Origin: an uncultured archaeon
GTDB taxonomy: Archaea; EX4484-52; LFW-46
Assembly: GCA_902384675.1 (NCBI GenBank)
Contig: CABMCT010000025.1
Location: 2,791-66,790, forward strand
Length of the DNA: 64,000 nt
Reading direction: 5' to 3'
The translations under genes and the position numbers were made by a program. The stretch's first letter is position 1, and each line of letters opens with the position of its first letter. Shown here in pieces: positions 2,474 through 63,681 of the stretch. Below the pieces are notes generated by a model, which was given only the letters and a program-made list of their open reading frames with translations, ran no database searches and was not told the origin of the DNA.

Positions 2474-2485
2474 ATGTTTATAAAC

Positions 2486-3079: not shown

Positions 3080-3091
3080 TCAAACAACCGT

Positions 3092-40209: not shown

Positions 40210-40451
40210 CGCAATGCACTCTCATAACATTAAATTATATGATTATTCGGCTTTTACAGCCGATGCAAGTAACCGGAAATATGAGTAATTATGTAATACT
40301 AAAATTTTTAACAGGCAAAAATGGCATGTTTTGAAATTCCGACAAGACCTTTGCAAACACACAGCTCATTTCCGCAGAAATTTGCAAAAATGAGCCATCA
40401 AGCTTAAATCTTGATAGGTGCCAACCATACGTAACAATTGCCGTGATTGCT

Positions 40452-42907: not shown

Positions 42908-43271
42908 CGAATTCACTTATCATATATCAACCAAAAAGGTGTTTTATGGTATGAAAATAAGCGAGAGTATATAGTAGACGTTTAAGGGCACTTTTTCATA
43001 GGGAAATATTTATATGTTATTTCCCTACATACAGCACTTCGTGACAGCCAAGATGGTATGGAATGCACGTTCTGCGCTCGAAAAATACTGTCATTAATTA
43101 TGAAGAACAATGATTAATATAATACATGATTGTTATCAAAAATGATAATTATCATGTATTTTCATTTCCTTGGAGTCTCGTCAATTTGCATAAAATCTTT
43201 ATAAACATCCGAATTCATCTTATATTATAATTCAACCAAAAAGGTGTTTTATAATATGAAAATAAGCGAGA
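42908..43271. repeat. ~60-bp direct repeat pair (42908-42966 and 43209-43271) bracketing an AT-rich palindrome-rich segment
   Basis: Both copies read CCGAATTCA..TCAACCAAAAAGGTGTTTTAT..TATGAAAATAAGCGAGA. The first copy ends in a 7-codon stub (MKISESI*). Between them are the 10-bp inverted repeat TAGGGAAATA/TATTTCCCTA and a ~40-bp near-palindrome AATACATGAT...ATCATGTATT. Confidence 0.75.
43198..43205 (+). promoter_or_regulatory. candidate TATA box upstream of abiEi
   Basis: AAATCTTTATAAACATC at 43193-43209, with AAAGGTG about 9 nt before the ATG at 43256. Confidence 0.4.
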
Positions 43272-43912
43272 CCATAATTCGGGAATTTTCACTTAAAGGC
43301 AAGAAGATACTCACAGCGCGCGACCTAAAAAGCATATGCGACAAATACAGCTTTGATTTCAGGAAGACAAAGGTTGCGCTATTGAATAAAGGGTATCTTG
43401 TTACTATCTTTCGTGGCATCTACTATCTGAAAGATTATAATGAGAAAAAAACAGGAGTGATAAAATACTCAGCAAACGAGCTTCTTTCATTAGGCCTTGC
43501 GGAAAGAGGCGTTAAAAACTGGTATTTCGGCCTGAATACTGCGCTGAAGATGCTTAACCTCACCCATGAAATTTTTCCGGTGAATTACGTGCTGAACGAC
43601 AAATTCAACAGGACAAGGCCGCTGGAAATCCTTGGCTCAAAATTCCTGTTCCGGAGGATAAAAACGCCCCTGTTTTCGTTCGGGATTAAAGAAACAATGA
43701 CTTCAAACAGGATTTTAATAAAATACAGCGATGCTGAAAAAACTCTGCTTGATATGGCTTATCTGTACCGGCTTTCTGGAAAGCCAGGAGACGCAATAAA
43801 GCCGTTGATAAAAGAATACAGAAGCACAATAAGCAGAAGCAAGCTGATTTCATACTCAAAGAGCTATCCGACAACTGTCAGAAATATTGTTATTGGTGCG
43901 TTAAATGGATAA
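43256..43912 (+). CDS. abiEi: AbiEi-like type IV antitoxin / transcriptional regulator
   Basis: N-terminal wHTH-like LTARDLKSICD...GYLVTIFRGIYYL. YFGLNTALKMLNLTHE and SDAEKTLLD match AbiEi family patterns. It overlaps the downstream NTase gene by 8 nt. Confidence 0.7.
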   Translation: MKISETIIREFSLKGKKILTARDLKSICDKYSFDFRKTKVALLNKGYLVTIFRGIYYLKDYNEKKTGVIKYSANELLSLGLAERGVKNWYFGLNTALKMLNLTHEIFPVNYVLNDKFNRTRPLEILGSKFLFRRIKTPLFSFGIKETMTSNRILIKYSDAEKTLLDMAYLYRLSGKPGDAIKPLIKEYRSTISRSKLISYSKSYPTTVRNIVIGALNG

Positions 43913-44828
43913 GGAAAGACTAAAGGAATTTATTGCATTTTTGAAAAACAAGACTGCCATAAAGTCAGAAGAGTTGCTTGAAAAGGACTTTTACATAAGC
44001 GTGCTTCTGCAGAAAATAGGAACCGGCGAATATGCATTCAAAGGCGGCACATGCTTATCAAAAGTGTACCTGAATTATTACAGGATTTCTGAGGATGTCG
44101 ACCTTACATACATTGACCAAAATGCCTTTAAGGGTAAAAGCACGAAGCAAATAAAGAAAATCTGCTCCGAGAAAATAACGATTTTTGGTAAACTGCTGGA
44201 GGATATCGCAAAAGAATACGATTTTGACTTCAGGCTTGAGAAAAGTAACAAGCGCTATGTCGAGCTCGGGAGCAATAACAAGCTTGCGACTTTCAAAATA
44301 TGGTATCGCTCAGCATTTACGGATACGGAATCGTTCATAAAGATACAGATAAACTTTCTTGAAATTATAAAATATCCCATAATAGAAAAAGCAATATTGC
44401 CGATAATAAACGTCAGCGCATTTTCAGAAACTGAACACACGTATTTTTCGGATTTTATGGGCGTCTACAAGCCGCTGAAATGGCATGTATATGATTTGCA
44501 CGAGATTGCTTCTGAGAAAGTGCGCGCACTGCTGACAAGAAAAGGCGTTAAAGCACGGGATATTGTCGATTTGTATTTCCTTGAGAAGAAGCATAAAATC
44601 AACATTTATGCACTCAAAGATGCATGTGTTGAAAAGGTGAATTTTGCTATCAGAAGCTATGATAAGTACAAAAAATCCTTTTTGGCAAGAGATTCATTTG
44701 AGAAAGGCATTCTTTTGGAAGACGTATCGCATCTTATGCTTACCGAACTCGATAAAAAGGACTTTGAGGCGTTCACCCAAAAATTGTTCGCGTTTCTGGA
44801 AGAAGTAAAGGCGGAAATCAGTACATAA
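43905..44828 (+). CDS. abiEii: AbiEii/AbiGii-family nucleotidyltransferase toxin
   Basis: LEKDFYISVLLQKI...YAFKGGTCLSKVYLNYYRISEDVDLTY is the hallmark N-terminal NTase segment of the DUF1814/AbiEii family. Confidence 0.8.
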   Translation: MDKERLKEFIAFLKNKTAIKSEELLEKDFYISVLLQKIGTGEYAFKGGTCLSKVYLNYYRISEDVDLTYIDQNAFKGKSTKQIKKICSEKITIFGKLLEDIAKEYDFDFRLEKSNKRYVELGSNNKLATFKIWYRSAFTDTESFIKIQINFLEIIKYPIIEKAILPIINVSAFSETEHTYFSDFMGVYKPLKWHVYDLHEIASEKVRALLTRKGVKARDIVDLYFLEKKHKINIYALKDACVEKVNFAIRSYDKYKKSFLARDSFEKGILLEDVSHLMLTELDKKDFEAFTQKLFAFLEEVKAEIST

Positions 44829-44976: not shown

Positions 44977-47385
44977 TTATGTGAACAACTCTTTGACCTT
45001 CTCTCTTATCTGGGAGCGAACTATCACCTTGCCGTATTTCTCGAACTCTTTTTTGATTTCCACGTTTGTGACGAGTATATAGCAATCATCGTATTCAGCG
45101 CGTATTTTTTCGTATTTAATCTTGGTTTCCTTCTGTTTCTTTTCTTCCATGCTTCCGGTTTCGACTTCAAAACAGATTTTCCTCTCGCCTTTCATTATAA
45201 CAACGTCCGGCTTAACTGTGGTGTAGAGAAAAACATGTTCGGTATATTTTCGTATTTCTGCCTCCAAGATTTTGCAGAAAAAGAAGTGAACTGGGCTTTC
45301 GTTGAAGCGCGGCTTTACATAGTAAATGAAACCCTTCCCGGCACCAAACGGATTAGTATCTATCTCTGCGTATTCCTCGTTTTCAAGCATCTTACACTGG
45401 TCCGACGTCAGAGTACTTTTGAGATAAAAGCCGGCATAGATGTCAAATATTGGCTTTTCTTCTTTCTTCCCTTTTGGCTTTGCATCTTTCACCACCCTCA
45501 GCTTAATCACTTCTGCCGGATCGGTTGTAATCATGTCGTGTATTTTTGGCGATGGCCTGGCAAAGAACTTGCATCTGTCCTCTTCGGTTATTAGCAAACC
45601 ATGGCCCTTCCCGCATTTTATTAAAAAGTCTTTCTCGTTCTGATTAAGCTTTAGCACTTTGCTTATCAGGTCAATGTTCGACGTGTTCTGCCTCATCAAA
45701 AGCTTTACCGATGCCTGATTGAGAATTGAGCGGCCTCCGTCGCTGTTAAGCAAGTCCTCTATTTCCTGTGTGACAAAGCCAATTGAAGCCCCGAACTTTC
45801 TTGAGGTTTTAATAAAATTCAATACGTATCCTTCCGCTTCCTTGCTGCGTAATAAAGCCCAACCTTCGTCAATAAGAAGAACTTTTGAAGAGTTGTCTTT
45901 TTCAATTTCGCGCTTTATGAAGTCCAGAACAATAAACATCATTAGCGGCTTTACTGCTTGCGGCAGCTTGCTTAAATCGAAGTTCAGGAACTTGTTCTGA
46001 ACATCTATCTCTGTAGGTCGGTCCATGAATCCAAAGAAACCGCTTCTGCAATACATTCCAATTCGGTTAAGTAACACTTGCAAACTCTTTGTATCAGGAG
46101 AAAGCCGACGCCTATCCCGCTTTTCATACTCCTTAAGCTCAAGCTCAAGAACCTTGTAGAGATCGGAAAACACAGGCGGCTCCTTAGTCCACGTCTTCGT
46201 ATCATCCTTGAATATTCCCTTGTGCTCGTACACAAGCGGCAAAACCCGATTCAAAACTCCTTTTTGGCTTTCTGTAAGCCCTCCAACAATGATGTCGAAG
46301 AGAGGGATTAGCGTCAGCATTTTGCTGCCAAAGTCTGTCCCGTTCAAATCGAAAACATTAATCATTGACTTGGAGGTTCTTGAAAGCTCGATGTTTTGTC
46401 CTCCGAATCTTTCGCATATCTGCTTGTACTCGGCATTAGGATCCAAAATAAAAACCTGGGAGTCTTCTGCAAAAAGTATTTGCAGCATCAGGTACTTGGC
46501 CGTATAGCTCTTTCCCGAGCCTGAGATTCCCAGAATAAGAAAATGCTTGTTTGACATTTTCGAGAAATTAATGAATATCGGGTTGCTTGTTTCTTCTTCA
46601 TGGGCAAATAGGATTCCTTGCTTGTCCGGGCTTGAAGACGAAATAAACGGGAACGTTGCAGCCAGTGAATTTGTCGGGAATTCCTGCTGGGCCGTAAGCT
46701 CGTCCATGCCTAATGGCAGGCAGGACCGCACGCCTTCGTACATCCGAAAGTTTGTTGTCTTTGGAATTATCAGGAGCGCATTAAGATTTGACTTGCATTT
46801 TTCAGTCAGCATATCCAGTTTTTCAAGCGTAGCTTCCTTATTGTCGATATAAAGGGAGACCCTGAATAGTTTCTCCTCTCCCTTATAGAGCGCGTCGTAA
46901 ATCCGTTTTGTGTCTGCAAGCTTTATTTCAAGAGATGGGTTAGGCGTTCCTTTTGCAGTGCTTGAAATTAAATCAGTGGTTTGCCTGATTATCTGGTTAT
47001 GGAGAAATGTTAGCGTTTCTTCAATCATGGACGGCTGTATGTGAATCGAAATATCGTAATTTTCATTTTTGTTCAGGAATGCCTGAAGCCAGCCGTCATC
47101 AACCTTTCTTGGATAGCCTACTGCCTGCACAACGCGATGGTATGTCTCGTTTACCCTGGCATAGTTCGGCTTTATTTCCATGTAAGACGGCGTAATCAGG
47201 TATGAAAACATTTCTTCGGGTAGTATAACTCTCGGCTTTTGTTTTGGCAACTGCGGAAAAAATCGCCACGCTTTTCTTGGCTTGTCCTTGTTCAGCTTCT
47301 GCTCTACCAAATGCTCCACTTCTTCAGGAGTAAGCAACTGAGGCTTCCTGTGCTCAATTATTGTTTCTTCTTCTCGTTCTGACAT
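44977..47385 (-). CDS. VirB4/TraC-like conjugation ATPase with a C-terminal PD-(D/E)xK-like extension
   Basis: YHRVVQAVGYPRKVDDGWLQAFL...YDISIHIQP (VirB4 N-domain pattern), Walker A GISGSGKSYT and Walker B VLLIDEGW. The last ~130 aa contain ESPVH...KPDVVIMKGERKICFEVETG. Confidence 0.85.
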   Translation of the reverse strand: MSEREEETIIEHRKPQLLTPEEVEHLVEQKLNKDKPRKAWRFFPQLPKQKPRVILPEEMFSYLITPSYMEIKPNYARVNETYHRVVQAVGYPRKVDDGWLQAFLNKNENYDISIHIQPSMIEETLTFLHNQIIRQTTDLISSTAKGTPNPSLEIKLADTKRIYDALYKGEEKLFRVSLYIDNKEATLEKLDMLTEKCKSNLNALLIIPKTTNFRMYEGVRSCLPLGMDELTAQQEFPTNSLAATFPFISSSSPDKQGILFAHEEETSNPIFINFSKMSNKHFLILGISGSGKSYTAKYLMLQILFAEDSQVFILDPNAEYKQICERFGGQNIELSRTSKSMINVFDLNGTDFGSKMLTLIPLFDIIVGGLTESQKGVLNRVLPLVYEHKGIFKDDTKTWTKEPPVFSDLYKVLELELKEYEKRDRRRLSPDTKSLQVLLNRIGMYCRSGFFGFMDRPTEIDVQNKFLNFDLSKLPQAVKPLMMFIVLDFIKREIEKDNSSKVLLIDEGWALLRSKEAEGYVLNFIKTSRKFGASIGFVTQEIEDLLNSDGGRSILNQASVKLLMRQNTSNIDLISKVLKLNQNEKDFLIKCGKGHGLLITEEDRCKFFARPSPKIHDMITTDPAEVIKLRVVKDAKPKGKKEEKPIFDIYAGFYLKSTLTSDQCKMLENEEYAEIDTNPFGAGKGFIYYVKPRFNESPVHFFFCKILEAEIRKYTEHVFLYTTVKPDVVIMKGERKICFEVETGSMEEKKQKETKIKYEKIRAEYDDCYILVTNVEIKKEFEKYGKVIVRSQIREKVKELFT

Positions 47386-48248
47386 GGCTTATCACGCTCC
47401 TTGGATTTGAAAAATGACTGGCATACACTCACGCGCCAAAGATAGTCTTCGTTTACCTCAACGTAGCCTTCAAAATAGGACATTATCAGAGAAACAAGCT
47501 GGTTTGTGTTCAGGCGATAGCTTGTCAGGCCGCAGTTGCCAAGCTTTGACTGGATTATCCTGACTCGCTCCTCTAGCTTTTTGAGCTGCCTTTCCTTGTG
47601 AATTGTTGTGCTTTCCTGGCTTATCGGAACCACAACATAGTAAAGCCGCTCTTTTACGAAGTGCTCTTTCAGAAATTTTTCCTCGTAAACTCTGAAGTCG
47701 TTGTACAAGCCGATTAAGCTCTCATCCTTGGTTCTCAGTATCTTGGCTTCATGGTCGCTGAAATAATCCGCTAAACTGACATTAACTGTCCTGACAACTA
47801 TCTGGATAGGATGAGGGAGCTGGTTCAGAAAGTCGCGGTAGTTAAGTATTATTGATTTCTGCCTGCCATCATCAAGCAGCTCGAAATTAACAGGTTTTAC
47901 AAGGAGTATTGCCCTTGATTCCCCATTTTCCAGATAGACTGTATCACTTTCTATCCTCTTTACGCCGACAAATGCCCGGACTTTTTTATCCAACGCGCCG
48001 CCGATTCGAACGTTGCGTAGGTAGGAAACTCTTTCTAAAAGTATTCGCTCAAAGCCAAGAAACGCAAAGCCAATACCAAGCAGAATTGCGAATGACGGCA
48101 GCACTAGTTTTGCCTCATTCTGCAATGGCAGCTTGTATGAAAATCCGGCCAGCATGGCGAAACCTACAAAATACGCCAGCTGCTTCATGTCCAGATTCAG
48201 GAAGATTTTTTCCTTGTACCTGACTTTGTCCGGTATATCGTAGCTCAT
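47358..48248 (-). CDS. VirB3/PrgI-like membrane protein fused to a VirB4-N-terminal-like domain
   Basis: KIFLNLDMKQLAYFVGFAMLAGF plus a second TM helix (PrgI/VirB3 pattern), then VYLENGESRAILLVKPVNFELLDD...FLNQLPHPIQIVV. Overlaps both neighbouring genes. Confidence 0.55.
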   Translation of the reverse strand: MSYDIPDKVRYKEKIFLNLDMKQLAYFVGFAMLAGFSYKLPLQNEAKLVLPSFAILLGIGFAFLGFERILLERVSYLRNVRIGGALDKKVRAFVGVKRIESDTVYLENGESRAILLVKPVNFELLDDGRQKSIILNYRDFLNQLPHPIQIVVRTVNVSLADYFSDHEAKILRTKDESLIGLYNDFRVYEEKFLKEHFVKERLYYVVVPISQESTTIHKERQLKKLEERVRIIQSKLGNCGLTSYRLNTNQLVSLIMSYFEGYVEVNEDYLWRVSVCQSFFKSKERDKPCQNEKKKQ

Positions 48249-49411: not shown

Positions 49412-49729
49412 TTACCACCCGCAAAGGCTGCCAGCGCCAACTAAGCTTTTGACCAGAAGCGGCGCTATCCAGATTATAATTAATCCCAGAATCACTCCGG
49501 TGAGCAGCGCCTTGCTTTGGTTGCGCTCGCTGATTTCGTTGCTTGAAGTCAGGATGAATCCTGCATAGGCTGCTACCAGTACTCCCGCGATAGTTCCCAA
49601 TACTTGGATTATGCTGTACAGCCTGCAAATCGGCTGGTCCGCAGGAATCGATATCACGTCAGCAGCTGCCGCGACGCTTATTTGGCTTATCAAAAAGACT
49701 GCAAATAACAAAAGTTTTTTCGCTTTCAT
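49412..49729 (-). CDS. VirB2/TrbC-like pilin paralogue 1
   Basis: Signal peptide (..ISVAAAA), then two hydrophobic helices separated by a short polar loop (TSSNEISERNQSK). C-terminal Cys-Gly-Trp. Confidence 0.55.
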   Translation of the reverse strand: MKAKKLLLFAVFLISQISVAAAADVISIPADQPICRLYSIIQVLGTIAGVLVAAYAGFILTSSNEISERNQSKALLTGVILGLIIIWIAPLLVKSLVGAGSLCGW

Positions 49730-50547
49730 TTTCTCACCTGGAATATTATTTTCAGCTCAGTGTTGGCTTTCTTCTGGATTACCGGAAGATATTCGCGGTT
49801 TATCTCGTAGCCTATCGATAACCGGTTGAGGCTTGCCGCTACCTTTGTTGTCGTGCCGCTTCCAAGAAACGGGTCCAGAACAATTTCTCCCTCGAAAGTG
49901 TAAAGCCGGATTAGAGCCTCGGGCAGCTCCTCAGGAAACATCGCCGGATGAGGATCTATATATTGGTTCTTTGTCTCCGGACACATGTTCCAGATGTCGC
50001 AATTCCAGTTTTCTTTGATAAATTCGATGTCCATTGCTGCCCGGCGCTTGTCCTCTTCAGTAAGCTTCTTGTAGTCGAACTTGCCTTTCCTGAAAACAAG
50101 AATGTGCTCGAAAACGTTGTTAGGGAAGTAGTACATCGGGTAAGGATGCCGTATGAATATGCCGAACCTCTTTCCGGCCCCGCTCCCGCCGTTTGCGCCC
50201 ACGCCTGAGGGCTTTTTCCAGATGATGTCTTCCCGATACTCGAAGCCCGCCCTTTGCAGCATAAGAATATAGTGCGCCGGAATCGGGTATTTTGCCTTGT
50301 CGCTTATTATGTCGCTGATATTGACGCAGATATAGCGGCCATATTCAAGAACGCGGTAGCACTCGTTGAACACCTGTTGCATTTCCTGCAGGTATTTGCT
50401 GAACTCATTGATTGAGCCGATATTTTCCCTGCCGTACTCCTTAACGTTAAAGTACGGCGGGCTTGTGACAATCAGCTGGACCGAATTATCCGGAACTTCC
50501 TGCATATTCCGCGAATCGCCGATTACAACTATGTGTTTTGGATTCAT
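49726..50547 (-). CDS. beta-class DNA methyltransferase (N4-cytosine or N6-adenine, N6_N4_Mtase family)
   Basis: Catalytic TSPPYFNV near the N-terminus and the SAM-binding DPFLGSGTT near the C-terminus. Confidence 0.9.
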   Translation of the reverse strand: MNPKHIVVIGDSRNMQEVPDNSVQLIVTSPPYFNVKEYGRENIGSINEFSKYLQEMQQVFNECYRVLEYGRYICVNISDIISDKAKYPIPAHYILMLQRAGFEYREDIIWKKPSGVGANGGSGAGKRFGIFIRHPYPMYYFPNNVFEHILVFRKGKFDYKKLTEEDKRRAAMDIEFIKENWNCDIWNMCPETKNQYIDPHPAMFPEELPEALIRLYTFEGEIVLDPFLGSGTTTKVAASLNRLSIGYEINREYLPVIQKKANTELKIIFQVRK

Positions 50548-50662
50548 GCGGTTATTATGGATGCTGGGGTCTCAATTTTGTTCGTGCAGAATTTGGCATT
50601 TTTATGTAGGCTGGGGGAATAATACAGTATTTCCCACAATTTCATTAAACAGTCACCCTTCT

Positions 50663-51754
50663 CTATAACTTCATCTCGAGGGATTTAACAACATTCGAAG
50701 GTTCATTAAAGTAGCCTTCATATCCGACAAAATATAGTAGGATCGTTAAAAGATCTAAATCAATTATAAAATGAAACCAATCGGATGCTTGCTCTTTTGC
50801 TTTTATAATTTCTTCCCAAGCACCACTTGCAGCGCTTTTATTTGTCATAAATACTAATCTTTTACCTTTGTTTGTTCTGCATTTCTCATCTACAACAGTC
50901 TTAGAGAGTTTTTGAGATAATTGTTTAGCATCATATGCTTTGTTTTTCATCACTTCTAGCATTTTGTTCATATATTCAAATAGTTGAATGGAGGAGATGT
51001 CTGATGGAAAATTGCCACCGACATGCACAAATTTGGTTCCTGTCGGGTTATTTTGATTTCTTTTGAAAAATAATAGCATATCACATATGCCTTTTTCATT
51101 GAATTTCAACTCATCAAAAAGTTTTGTTATTTCTTCTTCGAATTCCTTCCAATTTTTTGAGTCTTTACAGAAAACATTTATTTTACTCTTAATCTTGAAA
51201 ACTTCGGCCTCATCGAATTTTAATGAGATTTCATGCACTTTATTTATTAACGTACCTTCATCCATATTTAAGAAATCAGTAATTTTGAGGAATTTGGGTG
51301 TTGAATATATGTCTGCCAGAGCTGCTTTAGTTTCATCAAGGAAATATAATATCAATGACGAATGTTTTAAGATATCAATTAAAGTCGACGTATTTTCCAA
51401 AGAATCAGCAACAATAAGCGGTATTTTTTTATTGGCATAATATATGAAATAGTCACCATCGATATTTGTCAAAATTAAATCTGAGCTTTTTATTTTCTTA
51501 TCAATTGCGATTGATAATTTTTTTGTGTTGATATAATAGAATGTTTCTATGCGTTCTTTCGATAAATCGTACTTATTTTTTCTATTGCATGAAGCGCATT
51601 GCCAAAGTAATTTCTCAATCTGAATTTCATCTACATTGTTTTTATGGCCGCAATGTTTACAATAGGTGACTTTGTTAACTTTTTCTACTACAATCTTCTC
51701 TCTTTTTAATACGTCAATTCCATCATACTTCGCAGTTAAGCGTATAATGTTCAT
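50663..51754 (-). CDS. unknown protein with an N-terminal zinc ribbon and a possible PD-(D/E)xK core
   Basis: CKHCGHKN..x..CASCNRKN. In the C-terminal half, FPSD followed 21 residues later by YDAKQ could be a D...(D/E)xK nuclease motif. Looks strongly AT-rich by eye. Overlaps the upstream gene by 4 nt. Confidence 0.5.
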   Translation of the reverse strand: MNIIRLTAKYDGIDVLKREKIVVEKVNKVTYCKHCGHKNNVDEIQIEKLLWQCASCNRKNKYDLSKERIETFYYINTKKLSIAIDKKIKSSDLILTNIDGDYFIYYANKKIPLIVADSLENTSTLIDILKHSSLILYFLDETKAALADIYSTPKFLKITDFLNMDEGTLINKVHEISLKFDEAEVFKIKSKINVFCKDSKNWKEFEEEITKLFDELKFNEKGICDMLLFFKRNQNNPTGTKFVHVGGNFPSDISSIQLFEYMNKMLEVMKNKAYDAKQLSQKLSKTVVDEKCRTNKGKRLVFMTNKSAASGAWEEIIKAKEQASDWFHFIIDLDLLTILLYFVGYEGYFNEPSNVVKSLEMKL

Positions 51755-52938
51755 CTTGATCGCTTGTTTAACCCTATTTTATATTTTTCACCTAAATATT
51801 TCGTGAACTCCTTTGCAGCAATATAGTCTCTATTTTTTGGGCTATAACATACAGAACATTCATTATCAGACTCATCATTTATGTAAATTAAAAAACGTTT
51901 GTTATTAAATCGAACGGTAATCGCAGACACAATATCAGCATTTATGTTGGTTTGAAAATAACTCTCTAATTGCAACAGCATTTTCTTTAAATCATCTTTT
52001 GATTTTATTACTGTCAGATATGCATCGTGAAATTCCACCTTAGGTCTAAATTTTATTTCAATTAATTCGAGGGATTCATCAGCACTACCGATTATTCTGG
52101 ATAAAAGTTCGTTTATTTTCGATTTCTCAGTGTATTTATCAGTCTCCTCATATAAAGGCGAGCCGTCTACTACAGAAGCGTTTCCGTTTGCTACCAAAGA
52201 TGAAGCGAATTTTATTGATTGATTCGTCGCTCCCGAATATATATTGAGGTCTTTACATCCATGGCACAGGGAGAACATAACTGGCTTAGCGTATTCGACA
52301 AAGTCATATCCTTTCCTCAATGATGATGGGATGCTTTTACGTGATTTTGCCTTTCGAAATACAAAGAAAGCGGTTTCTTCGCCTGTATCAAGGACGTACC
52401 ACACATTTATTAATTGTTTGCTTTTTCTATCTTTGAATAGTGAGCGGAGTACTTCTTCAGCTTTTTCCGCTGTCAAATCTTTAATGCTAACACCATCCAA
52501 TTCCTTTGTAGTTTTACAGGTAATGTATCTCCCTTTATTTAACAGAGCAGTATAATGAATTTTTCTGATTAAGTCATGATCTGCGTCTTCTGTATACGCG
52601 TCGAGAAGTATTTGCTGTTTGCTGGATATTTGACGATTAAATACCCCTAAGTATAATGTTTTACATACTTCATTATCAAAGAGATCTATTTTCCTTGTAA
52701 TTATATACAACAATGCACAAAGATTGTGATTTTTTTCTATTACTTTCCTGAGAAAAAGCTCGTCACTTTCAATTTCTTCAGGATATGTTTTCCTCAGAAA
52801 ATCCATGATTTCTTTATCGAATCGAGCGGCTAAAGAACGTTCTTTACTTTTCATCTTCTCAAATTTTTTAAGAAAGTTTTCAGAATCAATGCCTATCTCA
52901 TTAAATAATTGATGATCTATCTGAATGTTATCTAACAT
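51751..52938 (-). CDS. unknown protein (395 aa)
   Basis: Long uninterrupted ORF that starts 1 nt after the hsdS stop and overlaps the next gene by 4 nt. No motif recognised. Looks AT-rich by eye. Confidence 0.5.
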   Translation of the reverse strand: MLDNIQIDHQLFNEIGIDSENFLKKFEKMKSKERSLAARFDKEIMDFLRKTYPEEIESDELFLRKVIEKNHNLCALLYIITRKIDLFDNEVCKTLYLGVFNRQISSKQQILLDAYTEDADHDLIRKIHYTALLNKGRYITCKTTKELDGVSIKDLTAEKAEEVLRSLFKDRKSKQLINVWYVLDTGEETAFFVFRKAKSRKSIPSSLRKGYDFVEYAKPVMFSLCHGCKDLNIYSGATNQSIKFASSLVANGNASVVDGSPLYEETDKYTEKSKINELLSRIIGSADESLELIEIKFRPKVEFHDAYLTVIKSKDDLKKMLLQLESYFQTNINADIVSAITVRFNNKRFLIYINDESDNECSVCYSPKNRDYIAAKEFTKYLGEKYKIGLNKRSR

Positions 52939-52939
52939 A

Positions 52940-54091
52940 TCATATCACCAACTCCCCCTTAAACGCTTTCTGCATAAGCGCATTAAACAGGTTTTCAGTT
53001 TCCTGCTTTGATTCTTTTTGATTTTTGCGCATTCCCTCGACTTTTTCAACAATTTCAACGAACTTATCTTGTTCCTCTAGCGTAGGTAATGGTATTTTTA
53101 TTTGTTTTATTTCAACTAGATGAAGGTTCGTTATCGTTCCCGTTTTGGAATGTTTTACTGCTTGCCTTAAGGCAAAATTTGTGTTTAGAAAGTATTCAAG
53201 AAATTTACTTCGGATAATATCCTTATTTGGCTTCAATAAGCATAAGCTAACAAAAATGCTGAACTCATAATCCCAGGTTATTGCTTTAGCTACTCCTATA
53301 GTCCCATTTTTTGAATATAAAACATCCCCCTTTTCCGGCTTGCATCTTTTTATTAATTCTTTATGTTCTTCCTCCGATATGTATCTTTTTGATGCATTGG
53401 ATTCTGTTAAATCTGTGACTCTCAAAAATGGTACTCCTGAATCAACATAATCTGGTGTTATGTGTGTTCCATCCGTAATTTTCAAGCAAACATCATTTAA
53501 TGTTTTTTCAGTGTATGTTCTTTTACTGTTAATAAACATCTCCAGAAAAACAGTCTGTAAAAGCTTTCCGGCGAGTCCATCCGCCTCAATACGCATTTGT
53601 TTTATTTGTTCCGCGCGTTCGAGAACTGGGATAATATGACGCTGTACGTGAATTGGTGGTAGGATAAATTCTTGTTTCAATAGTTCTGGTTTGGTAATAT
53701 GTTTCATTCCAGAGCCGTGTGTTTTATCTTTTAATTTTTGTACCATCGTTTTTAAATAAAATAAAAAATAATCATCAAAAATCACATCATTCTTAGGTTT
53801 CACCTTAAAAATATGCTGATTCAATAGGGCAGGACCTTTTTTCCATTTAAATATATCCAATGTAGCGGACCATGACAAAAGAATATCGCCGTATTTAACA
53901 TAATACTCTTGTTCGTAGTCTCCATCATAGTAATTTATTTTTGAAGAGGACCCTGTTAAGTTTTGTATTCTAATTATAGGTAATCCTTTATTTGTCCATT
54001 CAGACGGTTTAAATGCTCTACCGTTTATAAATTCAGCAACCTCCCCTAGCGAGGTTATCTTCCAACCTTCAGGAAAATTTACATTGATCAT
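52940..54091 (-). CDS. hsdS: Type I restriction-modification specificity subunit
   Basis: Two target-recognition domains, each opening with the family pattern (W..T.LGEVAEFINGRAF and L.DVCLKITDGTHITP), separated by conserved helical spacers. Confidence 0.85.
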   Translation of the reverse strand: MINVNFPEGWKITSLGEVAEFINGRAFKPSEWTNKGLPIIRIQNLTGSSSKINYYDGDYEQEYYVKYGDILLSWSATLDIFKWKKGPALLNQHIFKVKPKNDVIFDDYFLFYLKTMVQKLKDKTHGSGMKHITKPELLKQEFILPPIHVQRHIIPVLERAEQIKQMRIEADGLAGKLLQTVFLEMFINSKRTYTEKTLNDVCLKITDGTHITPDYVDSGVPFLRVTDLTESNASKRYISEEEHKELIKRCKPEKGDVLYSKNGTIGVAKAITWDYEFSIFVSLCLLKPNKDIIRSKFLEYFLNTNFALRQAVKHSKTGTITNLHLVEIKQIKIPLPTLEEQDKFVEIVEKVEGMRKNQKESKQETENLFNALMQKAFKGELVI

Positions 54092-54097
54092 GTTCTT

Positions 54098-55807
54098 TTA
54101 CTCCAACAAACTTATCGGTTTCTCTTTGAACTTTTCTGCGTTTTCGAAGCATGTCTTCACACCAGGTTTACGAAGATGTTTTAATGCTTCACCCTTAATC
54201 GCCCACGCTTCTGATCTTTTAGGATTGTAATTTAACAAAGCCATAGCATCATTTTTTGCTTCTTCCCAATGATTCAGATCTAATTGCGCTTGTGCTCGAT
54301 TTAGTAGAAAATCTTCTTTGGACCAAAGCCTTAGCGCTTTATCAAAATACTTTAATGCTTCCTTGGGTTTCCCTCTAATATGTAAAATAGCTCCCTTCCG
54401 ATTCAATACATGAGCATTTTTAGGCAGAAGCGTGTATGCTTCGTCTGCAATCTTTTCCGCGTCATCTATTAGACCATAACGTATTAGAACAGCCGTCTTA
54501 TTAGATAAACCTAAAGGAAATCTATTATCGCGCATTACAACTTTTTCAAAACATTCTAAAGCAAGCGGCAGATATTTTTCAGTTTTTTGAAACTTTGAAT
54601 TTATTTCAAAAACGACCCCTTTGTTATTTATTGCATTTAAGTTGTCTGTATCTCGTTTAAGTATGTCTTCGTTAAGATCATACGCTTTTTTCAAGTCAAG
54701 CATTTCAATATATAATAATACTTTTTGTTCTTGCAAGTTTACTGATTTTTCAATTAAATCTGCCTTTTCTTCCAAAAATGCTAGTGCTTCTTTCGATTTT
54801 TTTAGGTCTTTAAGAACTTCTACCTTATTCAGGATTGCAAAAATAAAATTAGGGTCTGCATATAGCGCCTTATCTGCAAGCTTTAGAGCCTCCTTGTATC
54901 GGCCAAGTCTCCGAAGATTGTGTGCCTTATTATTTAGTGCAAATATATTATTACTATCTATTTCTAGTATTTCATCATAACATTTATTAGATTCATCTAA
55001 CTCATCTGTTCTCTCTAGTATGAACCCTTTATTCAAAAGCGCTTCTACATTCTTCGGTGTTATATCTAATGATCTGTTTAAGAACATAAGCGCGTCTTCT
55101 GTTCTTTCAATGGAAAAGAAGAACATGCTTATTTTTTGATATAATAGTGCCAAAATATTTATGTCGGCATTTTTCAAGTTCAACAAACCTTCCTTAATTA
55201 CGTCGGCTACTTCTGAAGGGTTATTTGGATTAAATTGCTTTCCCGCTTTAAACTCTAATTTAAGCCCAAAACGCTTTGCTACATCAGAGGATAACTCAAT
55301 TGCAACGCCGGGCTTTTTGGCGTCAACGACGGGAGGAACCTCTTCATCTGGAAAGTAATATCTGCAAATATCTCTCGATTGGTGCAATATATCCAAAAAT
55401 TTCAAACCCGTCCAGTCATAAATTTGACATTTGTGCTTGTTATTCCAGTTTTTTATGTCATCTTTGCATTTTGGTGCCGTATCTGCGTTCGATATTATAA
55501 AAAACTTTTTTACGTCCTGATCATCTGCTTTTTGCACCTCGGTAGAAAAATTTCCAAAATTTATGCTGGAAGTATATCGTTTACACTGAAACCAGCATTT
55601 TTCTCTTATTTCTTCATTTGCGACTTTGTATACAAATTCTGCCTCTATATCTCTGCCACCATCTCCGCCGGGACCACGAACGGAGGGGTTTACAAATCCA
55701 TCTCTATTGTTGATGAGTGAATAGCATAAATTCTGAAATTCGGTCGGAGATATTGTATTGATTAGTTTCTTCCATTCTTCAGGAGATTTATGATTCCGTT
55801 CGTCCAT
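54098..55807 (-). CDS. Mrr-like restriction endonuclease domain fused to about 8-9 TPR repeats
   Basis: The N-terminus FQNLCYSLI...GPGGDGGRDIEAEF...CWFQCKRY matches the Mrr_cat PD-(D/E)xK pattern. The C-terminal ~350 aa consist of repeated TPR-like units (for example YKEALKLADKALYADPNFIFAILNKVEVL). Confidence 0.7.
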   Translation of the reverse strand: MDERNHKSPEEWKKLINTISPTEFQNLCYSLINNRDGFVNPSVRGPGGDGGRDIEAEFVYKVANEEIREKCWFQCKRYTSSINFGNFSTEVQKADDQDVKKFFIISNADTAPKCKDDIKNWNNKHKCQIYDWTGLKFLDILHQSRDICRYYFPDEEVPPVVDAKKPGVAIELSSDVAKRFGLKLEFKAGKQFNPNNPSEVADVIKEGLLNLKNADINILALLYQKISMFFFSIERTEDALMFLNRSLDITPKNVEALLNKGFILERTDELDESNKCYDEILEIDSNNIFALNNKAHNLRRLGRYKEALKLADKALYADPNFIFAILNKVEVLKDLKKSKEALAFLEEKADLIEKSVNLQEQKVLLYIEMLDLKKAYDLNEDILKRDTDNLNAINNKGVVFEINSKFQKTEKYLPLALECFEKVVMRDNRFPLGLSNKTAVLIRYGLIDDAEKIADEAYTLLPKNAHVLNRKGAILHIRGKPKEALKYFDKALRLWSKEDFLLNRAQAQLDLNHWEEAKNDAMALLNYNPKRSEAWAIKGEALKHLRKPGVKTCFENAEKFKEKPISLLE

Positions 55808-55808
55808 A

Positions 55809-57308
55809 TCAAATCATCTTCTTCAATTCTTCGACATTTTCCTTGATTTTGTTTTCAAGCGCGCCAATCTTGGCAATTATTTCTTTCGGCGGCTCATATT
55901 TGACTTCTTCATATTCGATTTCCTTGTACTTTGAGATAGAAAGATCGTATCCGTTCGCCTTTATCTCCGAAGCAGGCACAAAAAAGCTTTTGCCCTTTCT
56001 GTCTGTTTGTTTCTCATTTCCGCGATTTTTGAATCGCTCAATAATATCTGGGATATCGCCCTTGCCATCTACAAAAGTCCTTTTGTCGTCAAGGGAATAG
56101 CCGTCCTTTTCCATGTCGTAGAACCAGACTTTATCGGTTCTTCCACCTTTTGTGAAAACCAGCACAGCAGTCGATACGCCAGCATACGGCTTGAATACAC
56201 CCGAAGGCATAGAAATAACTGCTTCTAACTGACAGTTTTCAAGAATCATCTGCCTTAATTTTTTATGCGCGTTTGAGCTTCCGAACAGGACGCCATCAGG
56301 CACAATTACGCCGCACTGCCCGCCGATAATTAACAGATTTATCATCTGTTCCACGAAAAGAAGCTCTGTTTTTGTCGTAGCCAAACTTAGATTATCATTT
56401 ATGTCGCTTTTGTCAATGCTTCCTTTGAACGGCGGATTTGCAAGAACAACATCGTACTTTTCCTTTTCTTCAAATCTCTTTGATAGCGTATCCATATAAT
56501 CGATATTTGGCGCTTGTATTCCGTGCAGGACCATATTCATAAGAGCAATACGAACCATTGTGGTATCAAACTCATATCCGAAAAACGTATTCTTCCACAA
56601 AATATCCCAGTGCTTTTTCTCGACAATCTTGTCGCCGACAATATTATGCGGCTCGCCTTCCTCGTCATACTTTATCATGTCCGAAGATGTATATTTTGCA
56701 AGAATGTGCTCGTATGAGTTAATCAAAAATCCTGCTGTTCCGCATGCAGGATCACATATTTTCTGTCCGATATCCGGATTGACAAGCGCGACCATCATTC
56801 TTATTATGTGCCTCGGTGTCCTGAACTGCCCGTTTTTGCCTGCTGTTTTAAGCTCGGACAATAAATATTCGTAAATATCTCCCTGTGTGTCTCTGTTTTG
56901 CGCGGTTATGTTGAGCTCATCAATTATACTTACTGCTTCTTGCAAAAGCGAGGGCTTAGGTATCATAAAAACCGCGTCTTTCATGTGCTCCGAGAAAAGC
57001 GTTTTTTCGCCGTCTCTTACGGTTTTGATAAACGGAAAGACAATATCTCTCACATGCGCCATCATTTCCGGGGCATTATAGTGCTTCCATTCCGACCATC
57101 GGCAGTTTTCATGCCCTACAAATACAGAATTGTATTTTTCCCCTCGCGCCACGGCTCTCTTTTCATGTATGTTATCCAGGTCCTCAAGCCGTTTCATGAA
57201 TATGAGATAGCTCATTTGCTCTATTGCAGTAAGCGGGTTTGCGATTCCTCCGCTCCAAAACTTGTCCCATAGTTTGTTTATTCGTGCCCTTAAGTCATTT
57301 GCAAGCAT
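55809..57308 (-). CDS. hsdM: Type I restriction-modification methyltransferase subunit
   Basis: HsdM_N helix bundle (INKLWDKFWSGGIANPLTAIEQMSYLIFMKRLED), DPACGTAGFL and the catalytic NPPF. Confidence 0.95.
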   Translation of the reverse strand: MLANDLRARINKLWDKFWSGGIANPLTAIEQMSYLIFMKRLEDLDNIHEKRAVARGEKYNSVFVGHENCRWSEWKHYNAPEMMAHVRDIVFPFIKTVRDGEKTLFSEHMKDAVFMIPKPSLLQEAVSIIDELNITAQNRDTQGDIYEYLLSELKTAGKNGQFRTPRHIIRMMVALVNPDIGQKICDPACGTAGFLINSYEHILAKYTSSDMIKYDEEGEPHNIVGDKIVEKKHWDILWKNTFFGYEFDTTMVRIALMNMVLHGIQAPNIDYMDTLSKRFEEKEKYDVVLANPPFKGSIDKSDINDNLSLATTKTELLFVEQMINLLIIGGQCGVIVPDGVLFGSSNAHKKLRQMILENCQLEAVISMPSGVFKPYAGVSTAVLVFTKGGRTDKVWFYDMEKDGYSLDDKRTFVDGKGDIPDIIERFKNRGNEKQTDRKGKSFFVPASEIKANGYDLSISKYKEIEYEEVKYEPPKEIIAKIGALENKIKENVEELKKMI

Positions 57309-57312
57309 AGCT

Positions 57313-57690
57313 TCACATCCTTAGCTGTTTTATATCTGTTGGAAAGGCAACAGAACTCTTTTTTGATTTTTTAAGATAGTCGTTCCTTAAGGCCATAGCA
57401 GATATACTTTCCTGAATCAGATTAGAAAGAAATTCGGCATTTATTCCCAATGCAACCTTAATCTGGTTTCCGTCGTCTTCGTCTATTATCCATTCAAAAT
57501 TATCCTGCTTTTTGTTGTATGTAATCCTGTTGATGCCGGCTTTTTTTAAAGGAACTACACGAACAACGTTTTTTTCGATAAGCGCACGGATGAAGTGAGA
57601 AGGAGTTATTTTTTCCTTTTCGCAATAATTGCGAAGTTGTGTGTATGTCTCTACCGGTATCTTTGAAGAAATATTCCGTAATTCTTCCAT
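57313..57690 (-). CDS. ribbon-helix-helix-like small protein
   Basis: IPVETYTQLRNYCEKEKITPSHFIRALIE fits a CopG/RHH pattern. Located between hsdR and hsdM. Confidence 0.45.
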   Translation of the reverse strand: MEELRNISSKIPVETYTQLRNYCEKEKITPSHFIRALIEKNVVRVVPLKKAGINRITYNKKQDNFEWIIDEDDGNQIKVALGINAEFLSNLIQESISAMALRNDYLKKSKKSSVAFPTDIKQLRM

Positions 57691-57743: not shown

Positions 57744-60608
57744 CTATAAAAACACATCTTTTTCAAGTTGGTTGCAGAGTGAAATCATTCCCTGAAGCTC
57801 ATCCTTGTTAAACATGGGAACTGGCGCATTAACACCAAAGTTTGTAAATGGTGCGTCAAATAAATCAGAATATTCGATATGCTTCTTCTTTGCAAAAAAT
57901 GTCTGCAAGGTCCTTAAAAAATTGAGCTGGTCTGCATTGTAAAGCTTGTTGTTCTCGACAAGATACGTTTCAAACGCCTTCTTTATTTTCGTCTCGGGAG
58001 ATTCTTCCTTATAGAGTCCGAGGGTTTCCTTTATGAAATTAACAAAGGTTCCTTTATAGAACTGCTTCAACACATCTTCAGTAAAATACAACTCCGGGCT
58101 GTTCAACGTTTCCTCCAGAGCACGAACGTCTTTTTCTGTGAGTTTCTCGTTTTTGAATATTTTCTTTATTGTTGGATGGCTGGCTACAAGCTCTTTTATG
58201 CGCTTATCGACCTTTTCCTTATAGATTTTGACATATTCCTGCTCGGCGTTCGGGCCAAATTCTATTATTTTCCGCTGTTCTACGACGTCGTCAACATCGA
58301 TAATTATCGGCTCTCGTGGCTCGTCCATTTTGAATCTCATGATGTCCGCGAATTCGTCAATAAGCATCTGTGCATCATCAAAAGTTACGTCATTCCAGAA
58401 TTTTTTATCCAGCGACTTATCAAGAAGCTCTTCCTTTTTCTTTACCTGATTTAGCGTTCTTGGCAGGCAGTCAAGCATCTCGCCGATTTCATTCGGAAGC
58501 CGCTCAAGCTCTTTTTCATTGTTTTTAAGCGTCGCAAGCGCCAATCGTTCCGCTTTGAGAGTAAATGATGCAACATTTATGTTCACATTTTGCTTATAGC
58601 GCATCAGTGGTGCAACCTCCTTTTTTAAGAACTCAATTGGGTTGGTTCCTACATTAGTCCATAATTTTGGTGATAGCGCCTTTTCAACAACCCTTAACTG
58701 TTCGCGGATAGAAACAGAATCTTTTGGAAGCGAATCAACATCTTCAGTTATTTTTTCCTTCAAAAGCTCTGCCCTTTTGATATCTCCTTTTTTCATCAAA
58801 TTCTCAAGTTGCTCAATCCGTATTCTGAAAATCCTGTTTGTAATTGCTTCGCCGGATTCTGTCTGCTCCCCTTCCGGCTTCATGCTGAATCGTTCAAAGT
58901 TATTCCAGAAGTCAAATATCTTAAAATACTCTTTTTTGCCGTTCGGCAGCCATTCTTTATGTTCGCACGCGCTGTTTGCTCTTGTTCCGCGCCCGATCAT
59001 TTGCCAGAACTTTATTTTTGAGAAAACAGGCTTTGCAAAGACAAGATTGCATACTTCAGGCACGTCTATGCCTGTATCAAGCATATCAACAGAAATAGCC
59101 ACCCTTGGCCACTTATTTTTTTCAAATTCTGCAATACTATCCTGCGCTCGCGAATCTTCCGAAACTATGATTTTCGCAAGCTTTGACTTGTATTCAGGAT
59201 AGAGCCGCTCAAATGCTTCCCATAGCCTTTTTGCATGTTTTTTCGAAAGGGCAAAAATTATCGATTTCGCAGGAATTGTGCCTGTTTCGTCCGTGAGACA
59301 ATGGTCCATAAATTCCTTTACAAGCGCTTCATTTGTTCCTGTTGTTACGAATTTCTTTTCAAACTCCGTGCCTTCAAAATTTATTTCGTCGGGATTCATG
59401 CCACGCTCAAGCATTTCTTTCGTCATGTCCTTGCTTAAATCACCCACTTTTACGCCCTTTATTTGAAAATGTGTTTGCTCCCCTTGTACTTTGAAGTCGC
59501 AAAGAACACCGTCTTTTACTGCATCTTCATAACTGTAAACCGCTATTGCCTGCTTGCCGTCACACTCAAAGAATCTGAATGTATCGCGATCCATTAAATC
59601 CGCAGGCGTAGCTGTAAGTCCTATCTGCACAGCATCAAAATATGTAAAAACGTCTTTCCACTTGTTGTAAATGGATCTATGCGCTTCGTCTGAAATTATT
59701 AAGTCAAAATACCCCGGAGATATTTCTGTGTAGCACTCGCTCAATGTTTGTATTGTCGATACGTAAAGATTTGCATCTTTGTCTATTGTTCCTGAGAAAA
59801 TTTTGGCTTTCGATTCTTCTGGGAAGAACTTTTTGAATCCTTTGTCATACGCTTGATCCCTAAGCGCCTTGCGGTCCGCCAAAAACAGTATTTTTTGGGC
59901 TTGTTTCGCCTTCATCATTATGTCGATGATTGACATGGCAACACGGGTTTTTCCGGTGCCCGTTGCCATAACAACTAGCGCTTTTCTATGGCCTTTGTCC
60001 AGATGCTCCAATACTCTTTTAACACATTCGATGCTCTTCGGTCGGTCTACAATAGCCTTATTTACAGGAAAACGCGATAACTTTTGGCGATTCTTATTCT
60101 GAAATGTTATCCGTTCTAGATCTTCTCTTGAATAGAATCCCCTAAGTTGGCGTAGCCCTTGATATGGCCTGTTCCAGAACCATATCTCGTAGCCGTTTGA
60201 GAGAAAAATAAAAACATCCTTTCCAGTTTGCTTCTTTAGGTCATCTGCATATTGCGCCGCCTGCGTTTGTGCGGTTGCAATGGGGTCTTTTGATGTCCTT
60301 TTCGCTTCAATTATCGCCAAAGGGTCACCATTTGAGTCCAACAGAAGATAATCTACGTATTTGCTCTCTAAATCATTTTTTAGCGTTTGATTAACCGTTT
60401 TATAATCGCGAATTTTGAAGTTAGATTGTTTTGTGTCTATTTCTTCAATAATGTTAATTGCCTTGCCATAACGTTCTTTTGGTTCAGCAACAACTGCCGA
60501 TGCAGCACTAGCATGTTTGGGTAGCACCCACCCCTGTTCTCTTAACAATACATCTATTTTGGATGTTCTTGTTTGGAATTCCGATAAACCGGGATTATTT
60601 GCCATCAT
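57744..60608 (-). CDS. hsdR: Type I restriction enzyme R subunit (EcoEI-like with a C-terminal helical domain)
   Basis: N-terminal nuclease motif YVDYLLLDSNGDPLAIIEAKRTS, helicase motif I MATGTGKTR, motif II DEAHR and motif VI QMIGRGTR. Confidence 0.95.
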   Translation of the reverse strand: MMANNPGLSEFQTRTSKIDVLLREQGWVLPKHASAASAVVAEPKERYGKAINIIEEIDTKQSNFKIRDYKTVNQTLKNDLESKYVDYLLLDSNGDPLAIIEAKRTSKDPIATAQTQAAQYADDLKKQTGKDVFIFLSNGYEIWFWNRPYQGLRQLRGFYSREDLERITFQNKNRQKLSRFPVNKAIVDRPKSIECVKRVLEHLDKGHRKALVVMATGTGKTRVAMSIIDIMMKAKQAQKILFLADRKALRDQAYDKGFKKFFPEESKAKIFSGTIDKDANLYVSTIQTLSECYTEISPGYFDLIISDEAHRSIYNKWKDVFTYFDAVQIGLTATPADLMDRDTFRFFECDGKQAIAVYSYEDAVKDGVLCDFKVQGEQTHFQIKGVKVGDLSKDMTKEMLERGMNPDEINFEGTEFEKKFVTTGTNEALVKEFMDHCLTDETGTIPAKSIIFALSKKHAKRLWEAFERLYPEYKSKLAKIIVSEDSRAQDSIAEFEKNKWPRVAISVDMLDTGIDVPEVCNLVFAKPVFSKIKFWQMIGRGTRANSACEHKEWLPNGKKEYFKIFDFWNNFERFSMKPEGEQTESGEAITNRIFRIRIEQLENLMKKGDIKRAELLKEKITEDVDSLPKDSVSIREQLRVVEKALSPKLWTNVGTNPIEFLKKEVAPLMRYKQNVNINVASFTLKAERLALATLKNNEKELERLPNEIGEMLDCLPRTLNQVKKKEELLDKSLDKKFWNDVTFDDAQMLIDEFADIMRFKMDEPREPIIIDVDDVVEQRKIIEFGPNAEQEYVKIYKEKVDKRIKELVASHPTIKKIFKNEKLTEKDVRALEETLNSPELYFTEDVLKQFYKGTFVNFIKETLGLYKEESPETKIKKAFETYLVENNKLYNADQLNFLRTLQTFFAKKKHIEYSDLFDAPFTNFGVNAPVPMFNKDELQGMISLCNQLEKDVFL

Positions 60609-61320: not shown

Positions 61321-61403
61321 GGATGGGTAGGGAAGCGGTAACCCGCCAGACTGTCAATCTGGTGCCCGCAGGGGCGTCGTGGGTTCAAATCCCACCCCAT
61401 GAC
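61321..61403 (+). tRNA. aberrant tRNA-Asp(GUC)-like sequence (possible micro-intron; imperfect acceptor stem)
   Basis: The anticodon arm CCAGA-CTGTCAA-TCTGG and the T-arm GTGGG-TTCAAAT-CCCAC are canonical. An extra 12-nt hairpin GCCCGCAGGGGC sits in the variable region. In the acceptor stem GGATGGG/CCCATGA, only 5 of 7 positions pair. Confidence 0.45.
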
Positions 61404-63669: not shown

Positions 63670-63681
63670 AAGTATCACATT

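Follow-up and report, generated by a model that had tools for sequence, protein, structure and literature searches.

Gene layout and strict pairing of A and B

The two genes considered here, A (395 aa) and B (363 aa), lie side by side on the minus strand of a 64,000-nucleotide stretch of contig CABMCT010000025.1 (assembly GCA_902384675.1) from an uncultured archaeon. This whole stretch is referred to as the window, and positions are counted from its first letter. A and B close a series of seven tightly packed minus-strand genes that form one operon, and a methyltransferase (MTase) gene on the same strand lies beyond B, across a spacer of 115 nt. In operon order, the genes are:

57744-60608, minus strand: hsdR (954 aa), first gene of the seven-gene operon (Pfam ResIII, EcoEI_R_C and HSDR_N; PADLOC REase_I, E 3e-139)
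57313-57690, minus strand: 125-aa open reading frame (ORF) between hsdR and hsdM, weakly RHH/CopG-like (PHROG CopG-like repressor, E 5e-4; Pfam RHH_5 below threshold)
55809-57308, minus strand: hsdM (499 aa; Pfam N6_Mtase and HsdM_N; PADLOC MTase_I, E 1e-181)
54098-55807, minus strand: gene for a Mrr_cat and TPR protein (Mrr-TPR, 569 aa) between hsdM and hsdS (Pfam Mrr_cat, E 1.3e-6, and many TPR families)
52940-54091, minus strand: hsdS (383 aa), Type I specificity subunit (Pfam Methylase_S, E 3.7e-40; PADLOC Specificity_I, E 2e-68)
51751-52938, minus strand: gene A (395 aa, ATG start; ORF list), upstream partner of B
50663-51754, minus strand: gene B (363 aa, ATG start; ORF list), with a zinc ribbon, an alpha/beta middle domain, a helical linker and a predicted Mrr-like PD-(D/E)xK domain
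49726-50547, minus strand: beta-class N6/N4 MTase (Pfam N6_N4_Mtase, E 1e-49; PADLOC MTase_II, E 1e-72)

The hsdR, hsdM and hsdS genes were all present and contiguous by Pfam and PADLOC and constitute a Type I restriction-modification (R-M) operon, in which A and B are additional genes homologous to no Type I subunit. A single spacer base (...GTGATATGA T ATGTTAGAT) separates the hsdS stop, which ends at 52940, from the start of A at 52938, and A and B overlap by the 4 nt ATGA. Both spacings had been given in the original prediction, which was made from the DNA letters of the window, and reading the sequence bore them out. A and B are judged to be genuine genes because their full-length homologues (27-57% identity) were found without frame disruption.

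Neither protein had a meaningful match among Pfam, NCBIfam, PHROGs, PADLOC and PDB sequences; weak Pfam matches such as Borrelia_REV and HypA fell below threshold and were discarded as compositional noise. A word-indexed search detected four to five relatives of each protein at 39-57% identity, and the homologues of A span 30-57% identity. An exhaustive HMMER search with a B profile against 1.84 billion representatives detected 87 clusters (50% identity representatives; E < 1e-3), nearly all of them 340-440 aa in length. Their sources include a Nanoarchaeota metagenome-assembled genome (MAG), Nitrososphaerota, an unclassified archaeon, a Halanaerobiales bacterium and a candidate division KSB1 bacterium. 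The B family is rare, yet it is present in both prokaryotic domains. The description of the two genes as orphans does not hold with a B family of this size, along with which A travels.

Co-occurrence of the two genes in other genomes had been proposed as a check on the pair. Loci were fetched around B homologues over the whole divergence range, which gave 15 independent loci besides the window, and an A-family gene was directly upstream of B, or fused to it, in all 15. Pair loci are L001, L002, L003-6, L007, L008/9, L010, L011/12, L013, L014, L015/16, L017, L020, L023 and L024; in L021 the sequence ends inside A, hence B is not scorable there. Unfused pairs were on the same strand, with A usually overlapping B or lying a few nt away. 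A hidden Markov model (HMM) made from ten A sequences matched the independent upstream ORFs of L015 (8e-36), L024 (6e-17), L014 (1e-14) and L017 (1e-6). The fusion, P0049 (RIK82264.1, 844 aa), is encoded by a candidate division KSB1 bacterium (L008/L009, 8001-10535); its B domain occupies residues 507-826 and its N-terminal 510 residues match the A HMM (6e-14). A and B are thus a translationally coupled pair with strict co-occurrence, and the fusion and the coupling suggest that the two proteins work together in a single complex. No conserved third gene was detected around the pair, and the neighbouring genes showed no homology among the loci.

Signs of decay were seen in two of the related loci. 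A is split by a frameshift into two overlapping ORFs (154 and 242 aa) in L023 (697-1873), and in L021 (1-622) the hsdS that precedes A is intact at its C-terminal end only, with several in-frame stops further upstream. The most divergent archaeal pair (L007, 27-30% identity) is followed by a 369-aa ORF (2306-3415) that overlaps the end of B by 17 nt and has neither a PADLOC match nor a counterpart in the other loci.

Predicted domains of the two proteins

The domains of both proteins and the candidate catalytic residues of B were placed as follows. Structures were modelled with AlphaFold2 (AF2), and model confidence is given as the predicted local distance difference test (pLDDT).

51575-51667, minus strand: Cys4 zinc ribbon of B, residues 30-60 (C32, C35, C53 and C56, all four conserved)
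50720-51157, minus strand: predicted Mrr_cat-like PD-(D/E)xK domain of B, residues 200-345 (conserved tetrad, hhalign, HMM)
51137-51139 (E206), 50999-51001 (D252), 50930-50932 (D275) and 50924-50926 (K277), minus strand: candidate catalytic residues of B (conservation)
52534-52938, minus strand: N-terminal domain of A, residues 1-135, all-helical and acidic (pI 5.8; AF2 helices 9-135, pLDDT ~80-93)
51754-52533, minus strand: core of A, residues 136-395, basic alpha/beta (pI 8.8-9.0), the conserved part of the A family, possibly with an RdgC/CENP-N-like fold

Conservation in B was counted over 72 aligned family members. Each zinc-ribbon cysteine was kept in 68-71 of them, so the CxxC..CxxC ribbon that had been read in the window protein is a feature of the family. 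The family profile matched the zinc ribbon of archaeal RNA polymerase subunit P/Rpo12 (E 0.0013), and some members matched Pfam Zn_Ribbon_TF and Zn_ribbon_RPB9. In the C-terminal domain, D252 and an acidic residue (D or E) at position 275 were present in all 72 members and E206 and K277 in 71 each; the window protein has all four. The possible nuclease core proposed earlier, FPSD(252)...YD(275)AK(277), is present and family-conserved, and the profile aligns it to Mrr_cat.

Profile comparisons connect this domain to a nuclease encoded in the same operon. The B profile aligned by hhalign to the Mrr_cat domain of the window's own Mrr-TPR protein with a probability value of 87.8 and a score of 41.9, compared with 12.7 +/- 2.2 (maximum 18.0) for 100 shuffles of the Mrr_cat target. 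The alignment covers the C-terminal 140 residues of the B profile and sets FE against FQ, GGxGxxD against GGDGGRD and (D/E)xK against QCK. A local HMM made from two Mrr-TPR N-terminal domains matched residues ~220-345 in more than ten B members, and the Pfam scan of the 72 members detected Mrr_cat (PF04471) in two and Mrr_cat_2 in one; none of the ten best local-HMM candidates carried a Pfam Mrr_cat match. By motif and profile, the C-terminal domain of B is homologous to Mrr_cat. In all likelihood B is an active endonuclease of the Mrr-like PD-(D/E)xK type whose N-terminal module is novel, and it would be expected to cleave DNA.

B shares with Mrr_cat endonucleases such as E. coli Mrr (Type IV), and with the Mrr-TPR protein of the operon, the order and spacing of the FE helix, GGxGxxD and (D/E)xK. 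It differs from Mrr in a helical insertion of ~25 residues between the FE helix and the GGxGxxD strand and in its N-terminus, where a Cys4 zinc ribbon and an alpha/beta domain take the place of the Mrr_N winged helix. B also has an obligate partner, A, and falls below every Pfam threshold. The N-terminal half of the AF2 model of B, comprising a zinc-ribbon beta domain and an alpha/beta domain, was confident (pLDDT 80-92). Foldseek searches with the model returned only matches to the MetRS zinc knuckle and noise, and they are uninformative because the C-terminal half was poorly modelled. The confident middle domain of B (residues 76-165; 51260-51529, minus strand) has an alpha-beta-beta-beta-alpha-beta-alpha order that recalls a nuclease-like domain, which would be the second in the protein and probably inactive; the Foldseek hints for this domain, an Hjc-type resolvase and Mus81-Eme1, were non-significant (E > 1).

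The N-terminal domain of A is less conserved than the core, because distant bacterial homologues match the A HMM mainly from about position 85-150 onward. Residues invariant across the broad family are Y129, K174, W180, L231, S235, A245 and Y263, and an AKSRKS motif is invariant in close relatives and gone in distant ones. Comparison of close and distant homologues revealed no conserved catalytic-looking residues in the A family. The earlier statement that the 395-aa protein lacks a recognisable motif agrees with this, as neither a catalytic signature nor a family match was detected.

The AF2 model of A (mean pLDDT 75.5) consists of a confident helical N-terminal domain and an alpha/beta remainder. 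Foldseek against the PDB placed RdgC of E. coli and Pseudomonas on top (2owl_B, E 8e-6; range to 4e-4; probability ~1), followed by CENP-N, and Foldseek against BFVD placed phage 'recombination-associated protein RdgC' entries on top (E 6e-4 and weaker). RdgC and the CENP-N/Chl4 kinetochore family are among the reported structural relatives of lambda RexA, which is the RdgC-fold DNA-binding half of the RexAB phage exclusion system (PMC11077077). The model of A resembles RexA in that it retrieves RdgC and the CENP-N/Chl4 family, and what is reported for RexA has a parallel in the role proposed for A. In contrast to RexA and RdgC, A has an additional helical N-terminal domain of 135 residues, low TM scores and no sequence or profile likeness to them, and its partner is a soluble predicted nuclease, whereas RexB is a membrane protein. 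We consider it roughly an even question whether the core of A is an RdgC/RexA-like DNA-binding scaffold; if the model is taken as a guide, A may bind DNA. A PADLOC match of A to Hachiman HamA (DUF1837; E 3.8e-4, 17.9 bits) was treated as chance because it was confined to the window protein, with none of the nine other A members matching.

Base composition and genomic context

A, B, hsdS and the Mrr-TPR gene make up a block of low GC content:

50621-55640 (about): low-GC block of B, A, hsdS and Mrr-TPR (two-change-point fit, GC 0.33 inside and 0.43 outside; per-gene GC content at third codon positions, GC3; 1-kb profile)

The GC3 values of the four genes are nearly equal (B 0.297, A 0.295, hsdS 0.299 and Mrr-TPR 0.307), compared with 0.468 for hsdM, 0.42 for hsdR, 0.503 for VirB4 and 0.62 for the MTase elsewhere in the window. 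The GC content of the 2276-bp A-B target was below that of every same-size sliding window across the 64 kb. The block given by the change-point fit begins in the B-MTase spacer and reaches almost to the start of the Mrr-TPR gene, and the sharpest compositional step of the region lies inside the 115-nt spacer. Windowed GC and GC3 therefore agree with the AT-rich patch that had been noticed by eye for A, B, hsdS and Mrr-TPR relative to hsdR, hsdM and VirB4. The separate acquisition that had been deduced from this patch is plausible for the four-gene block in the window, but a random insertion is not, since the whole operon order is kept in L001; this conservation argues for cassette-like exchange within a conserved operon. 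A scan of the B-MTase spacer for bacterial-type promoters and terminators was uninformative; the organism is archaeal. No gene of the region has a higher GC3 than the MTase, which looks like an independently acquired orphan methylase upstream of conjugation genes.

The order hsdR-x-hsdM-MrrTPR-hsdS-A-B was the same in L001, where identities to the window were 59% for hsdR, 65% for hsdM, 51% for Mrr-TPR, 28% for hsdS, 57% for A and 49% for B. The L001 operon has the same hsdS-A junction as the window and adjoins a VirB4 gene, with no MTase between. L021 shares the window's 1-nt gap between hsdS and A, here after a C-terminal remnant of hsdS (...ALMQKAFNDELVI and stop). Two other genes of the operon are of note. 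The Mrr-TPR protein, with an N-terminal Mrr_cat domain and a long TPR array, is a second putative nuclease embedded in the same Type I operon; its gene is the first of the low-GC block and keeps its position in L001, and the 125-aa ORF at 57313-57690 may encode a controller protein; L001 has a 166-aa ORF there that is 27% identical over 69 residues.

Outside these loci the pair was also located in a different methylase system. The fusion in L008/9 and the pair in L014 lie immediately upstream of genes for HmaB (DUF1156 methylase) and HmaC (DUF499 ATPase), both with an SNF2-NOV_C helicase gene, and SIR2, OLD/GajA-like and Argonaute-associated genes are present in this setting as well; these are Hma ('BREX-related') loci. 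The KSB1 fusion gene sits between the gene for a 1508-aa protein and HmaB/HmaC, with SIR2_2 and SNF2-NOV_C upstream. Other neighbours of the pair are a PDC-S06/AAA_13 ATPase and a NERD protein in L015, a SIR2-TPR gene and a PIN toxin-antitoxin pair in L017, and an integrase in L010. The pair has housekeeping genes and the gene for an Hjc-type Holliday junction resolvase as neighbours in L002 and is surrounded by DnaJ, DnaK and GrpE genes in L011; in L024 it is in a bacterial chromosome. The pair is thus recurrently located in Type I R-M loci, Hma/BREX-related loci and defence islands.

Possible roles of the pair and the surrounding element

On computational grounds, the two genes form a genuine and conserved nuclease module that has so far gone undescribed, although its parts (Mrr-like nuclease, zinc ribbon and residence in defence islands) are familiar. 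We lean slightly towards reading the two proteins as subunits of one conserved, mobile and autonomous nuclease module that serves as an auxiliary anti-invader (defence or exclusion) system inside methylase-based defence operons. The module is regarded as autonomous because the pair occurs alone. A and B would be made together by translational coupling and bind each other. B would be the effector and cut DNA through an Mrr-like active site, E206-D252-D275-x-K277, while its zinc ribbon and middle domain would help to recognise a substrate or the partner. A would sense or hold DNA, or sense a trigger, and gate the nuclease B; its fold, possibly RdgC/RexA/CENP-N-like, could provide a DNA-encircling scaffold. 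Candidate substrates are unmodified DNA, modified DNA and a structure-specific substrate. Often nested in methylase-based defence operons, the module may act there as a second layer, and a defence role for A-B is suggested by the company that it keeps.

Several known arrangements resemble this one. In the 'immigration control' neighbourhood of E. coli (hsd-mrr), mrr lies beside a Type I R-M system, and B likewise adjoins such a system. PrrC is an ATPase-anticodon RNase and not a DNA nuclease. Like PrrC of the EcoprrI operon (Type I) and like BREX/Hma effectors, A-B is a stand-alone effector module within or at the edge of a methylase-system operon, here with two unrelated hosts, Type I R-M and Hma. 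PD-(D/E)xK 'auxiliary/backup effectors' have been described as embedded in BREX-related loci (Hma: DUF1156, DUF499 and Snf2; PMC12839542). The A and B families differ from the auxiliary effectors described and are not among them: PMC12839542 does not mention RdgC, Mrr or a zinc ribbon, PADLOC gave no match, and the pair also occurs alone. With two-component nuclease defence systems as a general class, A-B shares a partner and a PD-(D/E)xK effector, tight coupling and occasional fusion; it differs from that class in that the conserved unit has no NTPase, helicase or energy-using component.

A number of results weigh against a nuclease-based defence module. Among the related loci, L002, L011 and L024 had no recognisable defence neighbour, the flanks of L002 and L011 being housekeeping genes, and in roughly half of the informative loci defence is assigned through guilt by association. 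Searches of GenBank phages, PLSDB plasmids and IMG/VR detected no relatives, and a search of GTDB representative genomes by patterns derived from the close families of A and B detected no close relatives. PADLOC-DB v2 gave no consistent match to A or B, and the 72 B members share no model beyond single weak matches. For B, the window protein had no Pfam Mrr_cat match at E <= 1 and matched no Pfam nuclease family. The nuclease half of its AF2 model was poor (pLDDT ~50), and Foldseek of this model, with its C-terminal half at pLDDT ~50, found no nuclease fold in the PDB and no match at E < 0.001; the case for the nuclease fold is therefore one of motif and profile. For A, the matches to RdgC had TM scores of 0.19-0.29 (0.24-0.29 for 2owl_B) and a root-mean-square deviation of 13-15 A on a model of mean pLDDT 75. 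By hhalign, the A profile showed no signal against E. coli RdgC or lambda RexA (Prob 0.1), and neither the Pfam search with A nor the search of its profile against PDB sequences detected RdgC or any other match.

A more ambitious form of the defence reading is doubtful at present. It would have A-B as an undescribed two-protein immune module of archaea and bacteria in which an RdgC/RexA-like sensor that encircles DNA, A, licenses the zinc-ribbon nuclease B, and which has been recruited repeatedly as a fail-safe of unrelated methylation systems (Type I R-M and Hma/BREX-related), firing when these are disabled or bypassed.

It is also unlikely, and a little more so, that A-B is non-autonomous and serves methylation-based systems as an obligatory accessory or guard. 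Such a guard could be a backup nuclease freed when a viral anti-restriction protein blocks HsdMS or the methylase complex, in the style of PrrC-EcoprrI, or its distinction of self from non-self could be set by the methylation mark of the host. The pair does lie beside a specificity or methylase gene in five informative loci (after hsdS in the window, L001 and L021, and before HmaB in L008/9 and L014), the order of the seven operon genes is kept, at 50-65% identity, A is 1 nt from hsdS, and backup effectors embedded in such loci are documented (PMC12839542). However, no methylase or R-M gene was present in the fetched flanks of L002, L003-6, L007, L010, L011, L013, L015, L017 and L024. The partner systems also differ (Type I and Hma), and this fits co-location in islands better than specific physical dependence.

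It is quite improbable that the pair stabilises the mobile element as an addiction module of toxin-antitoxin-like design, with B as nuclease toxin, A as neutralising partner and no direct antiviral role. An upstream partner and a downstream nuclease in overlapping frames do recall type II toxin-antitoxin organisation, and the pair is on an element with integrase, VirB4 and AbiE genes in the window and adjacent to an integrase in L010. But both proteins are large, a stable A-B fusion would be awkward for a labile antitoxin, and the pair also occurs in chromosomal, apparently non-mobile contexts.

Slightly less credible again is a DNA repair or recombination module in which an RdgC-like DNA-binding protein and a structure-specific nuclease serve genome maintenance. 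The best structural matches of A are recombination-associated proteins (RdgC), and the surroundings of the pair in L002 (Hjc-type resolvase and housekeeping genes) and L011 (DnaJ, DnaK and GrpE) would suit this role. Against it are the very sparse and patchy spread of the family, 87 clusters among 1.84 billion representatives in unrelated archaea and bacteria, the lack of close relatives among GTDB species representatives by close-family patterns, the recurrence of the pair in defence islands and mobile elements, and its atypical composition in this window.

The original prediction had offered B as the Type II restriction endonuclease partner of the MTase at 49726-50547, and this is very improbable. 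The MTase is adjacent and a bona fide Type II-like enzyme by its Pfam and PADLOC matches, and B has the PD-(D/E)xK motif common to most Type II enzymes; on the other side, tblastn detected a homologue of the MTase in none of the related loci, the syntenic L001 has no MTase, GC3 falls from 0.62 in the MTase to 0.30 in B and the change point lies within the intervening spacer, and the constant, translationally coupled partner of B is A and not a methylase. Taken together, these observations leave the Type II pair unsupported, and A-B is independent of the neighbouring MTase. This corrects a tempting mis-annotation of B as the endonuclease of the adjoining methylase.

If A-B is a working defence module, it would be a new compact system without an NTPase, found mainly in poorly studied archaea (the Nanoarchaeota MAG and Nitrososphaerota) and candidate bacterial phyla. 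It would add a further documented case of effector modules nested in R-M and BREX-related operons and would bear on how layered or 'backup' immunity is assembled. A would be a new protein family and could widen the range of the RdgC/RexA DNA-binding scaffold to include archaeal conflict systems.

The surroundings of the operon in the window look like an archaeal integrated or conjugative element, with the following features:

36826-38106: tyrosine integrase, element gene
40443-41573: Orc1/Cdc6, element gene
43244-43912: 222-aa ORF overlapping the AbiEii gene, probably its AbiEi-like partner (no Pfam match)
43905-44828: AbiEii toxin gene, element gene
44977-47385: VirB4/TraG-like ATPase, element gene
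47358-48248: PrgI-like protein, element gene
61321-61403: tRNA of 83 nt with a long variable region (Rfam 49.8 bits; ARAGORN: Asp-GTC)
61950-63678: DUF6036 nucleotidyltransferase and wHTH pair, element surroundings

No att-type repeat of the tRNA 3' end (61.3 kb) that would link it to the integrase side was found. The 222-aa ORF has its 5' end and the region upstream of it duplicated in a 54-nt direct repeat (42918-42971 and 43223-43276; 87% identity, 305 nt apart).

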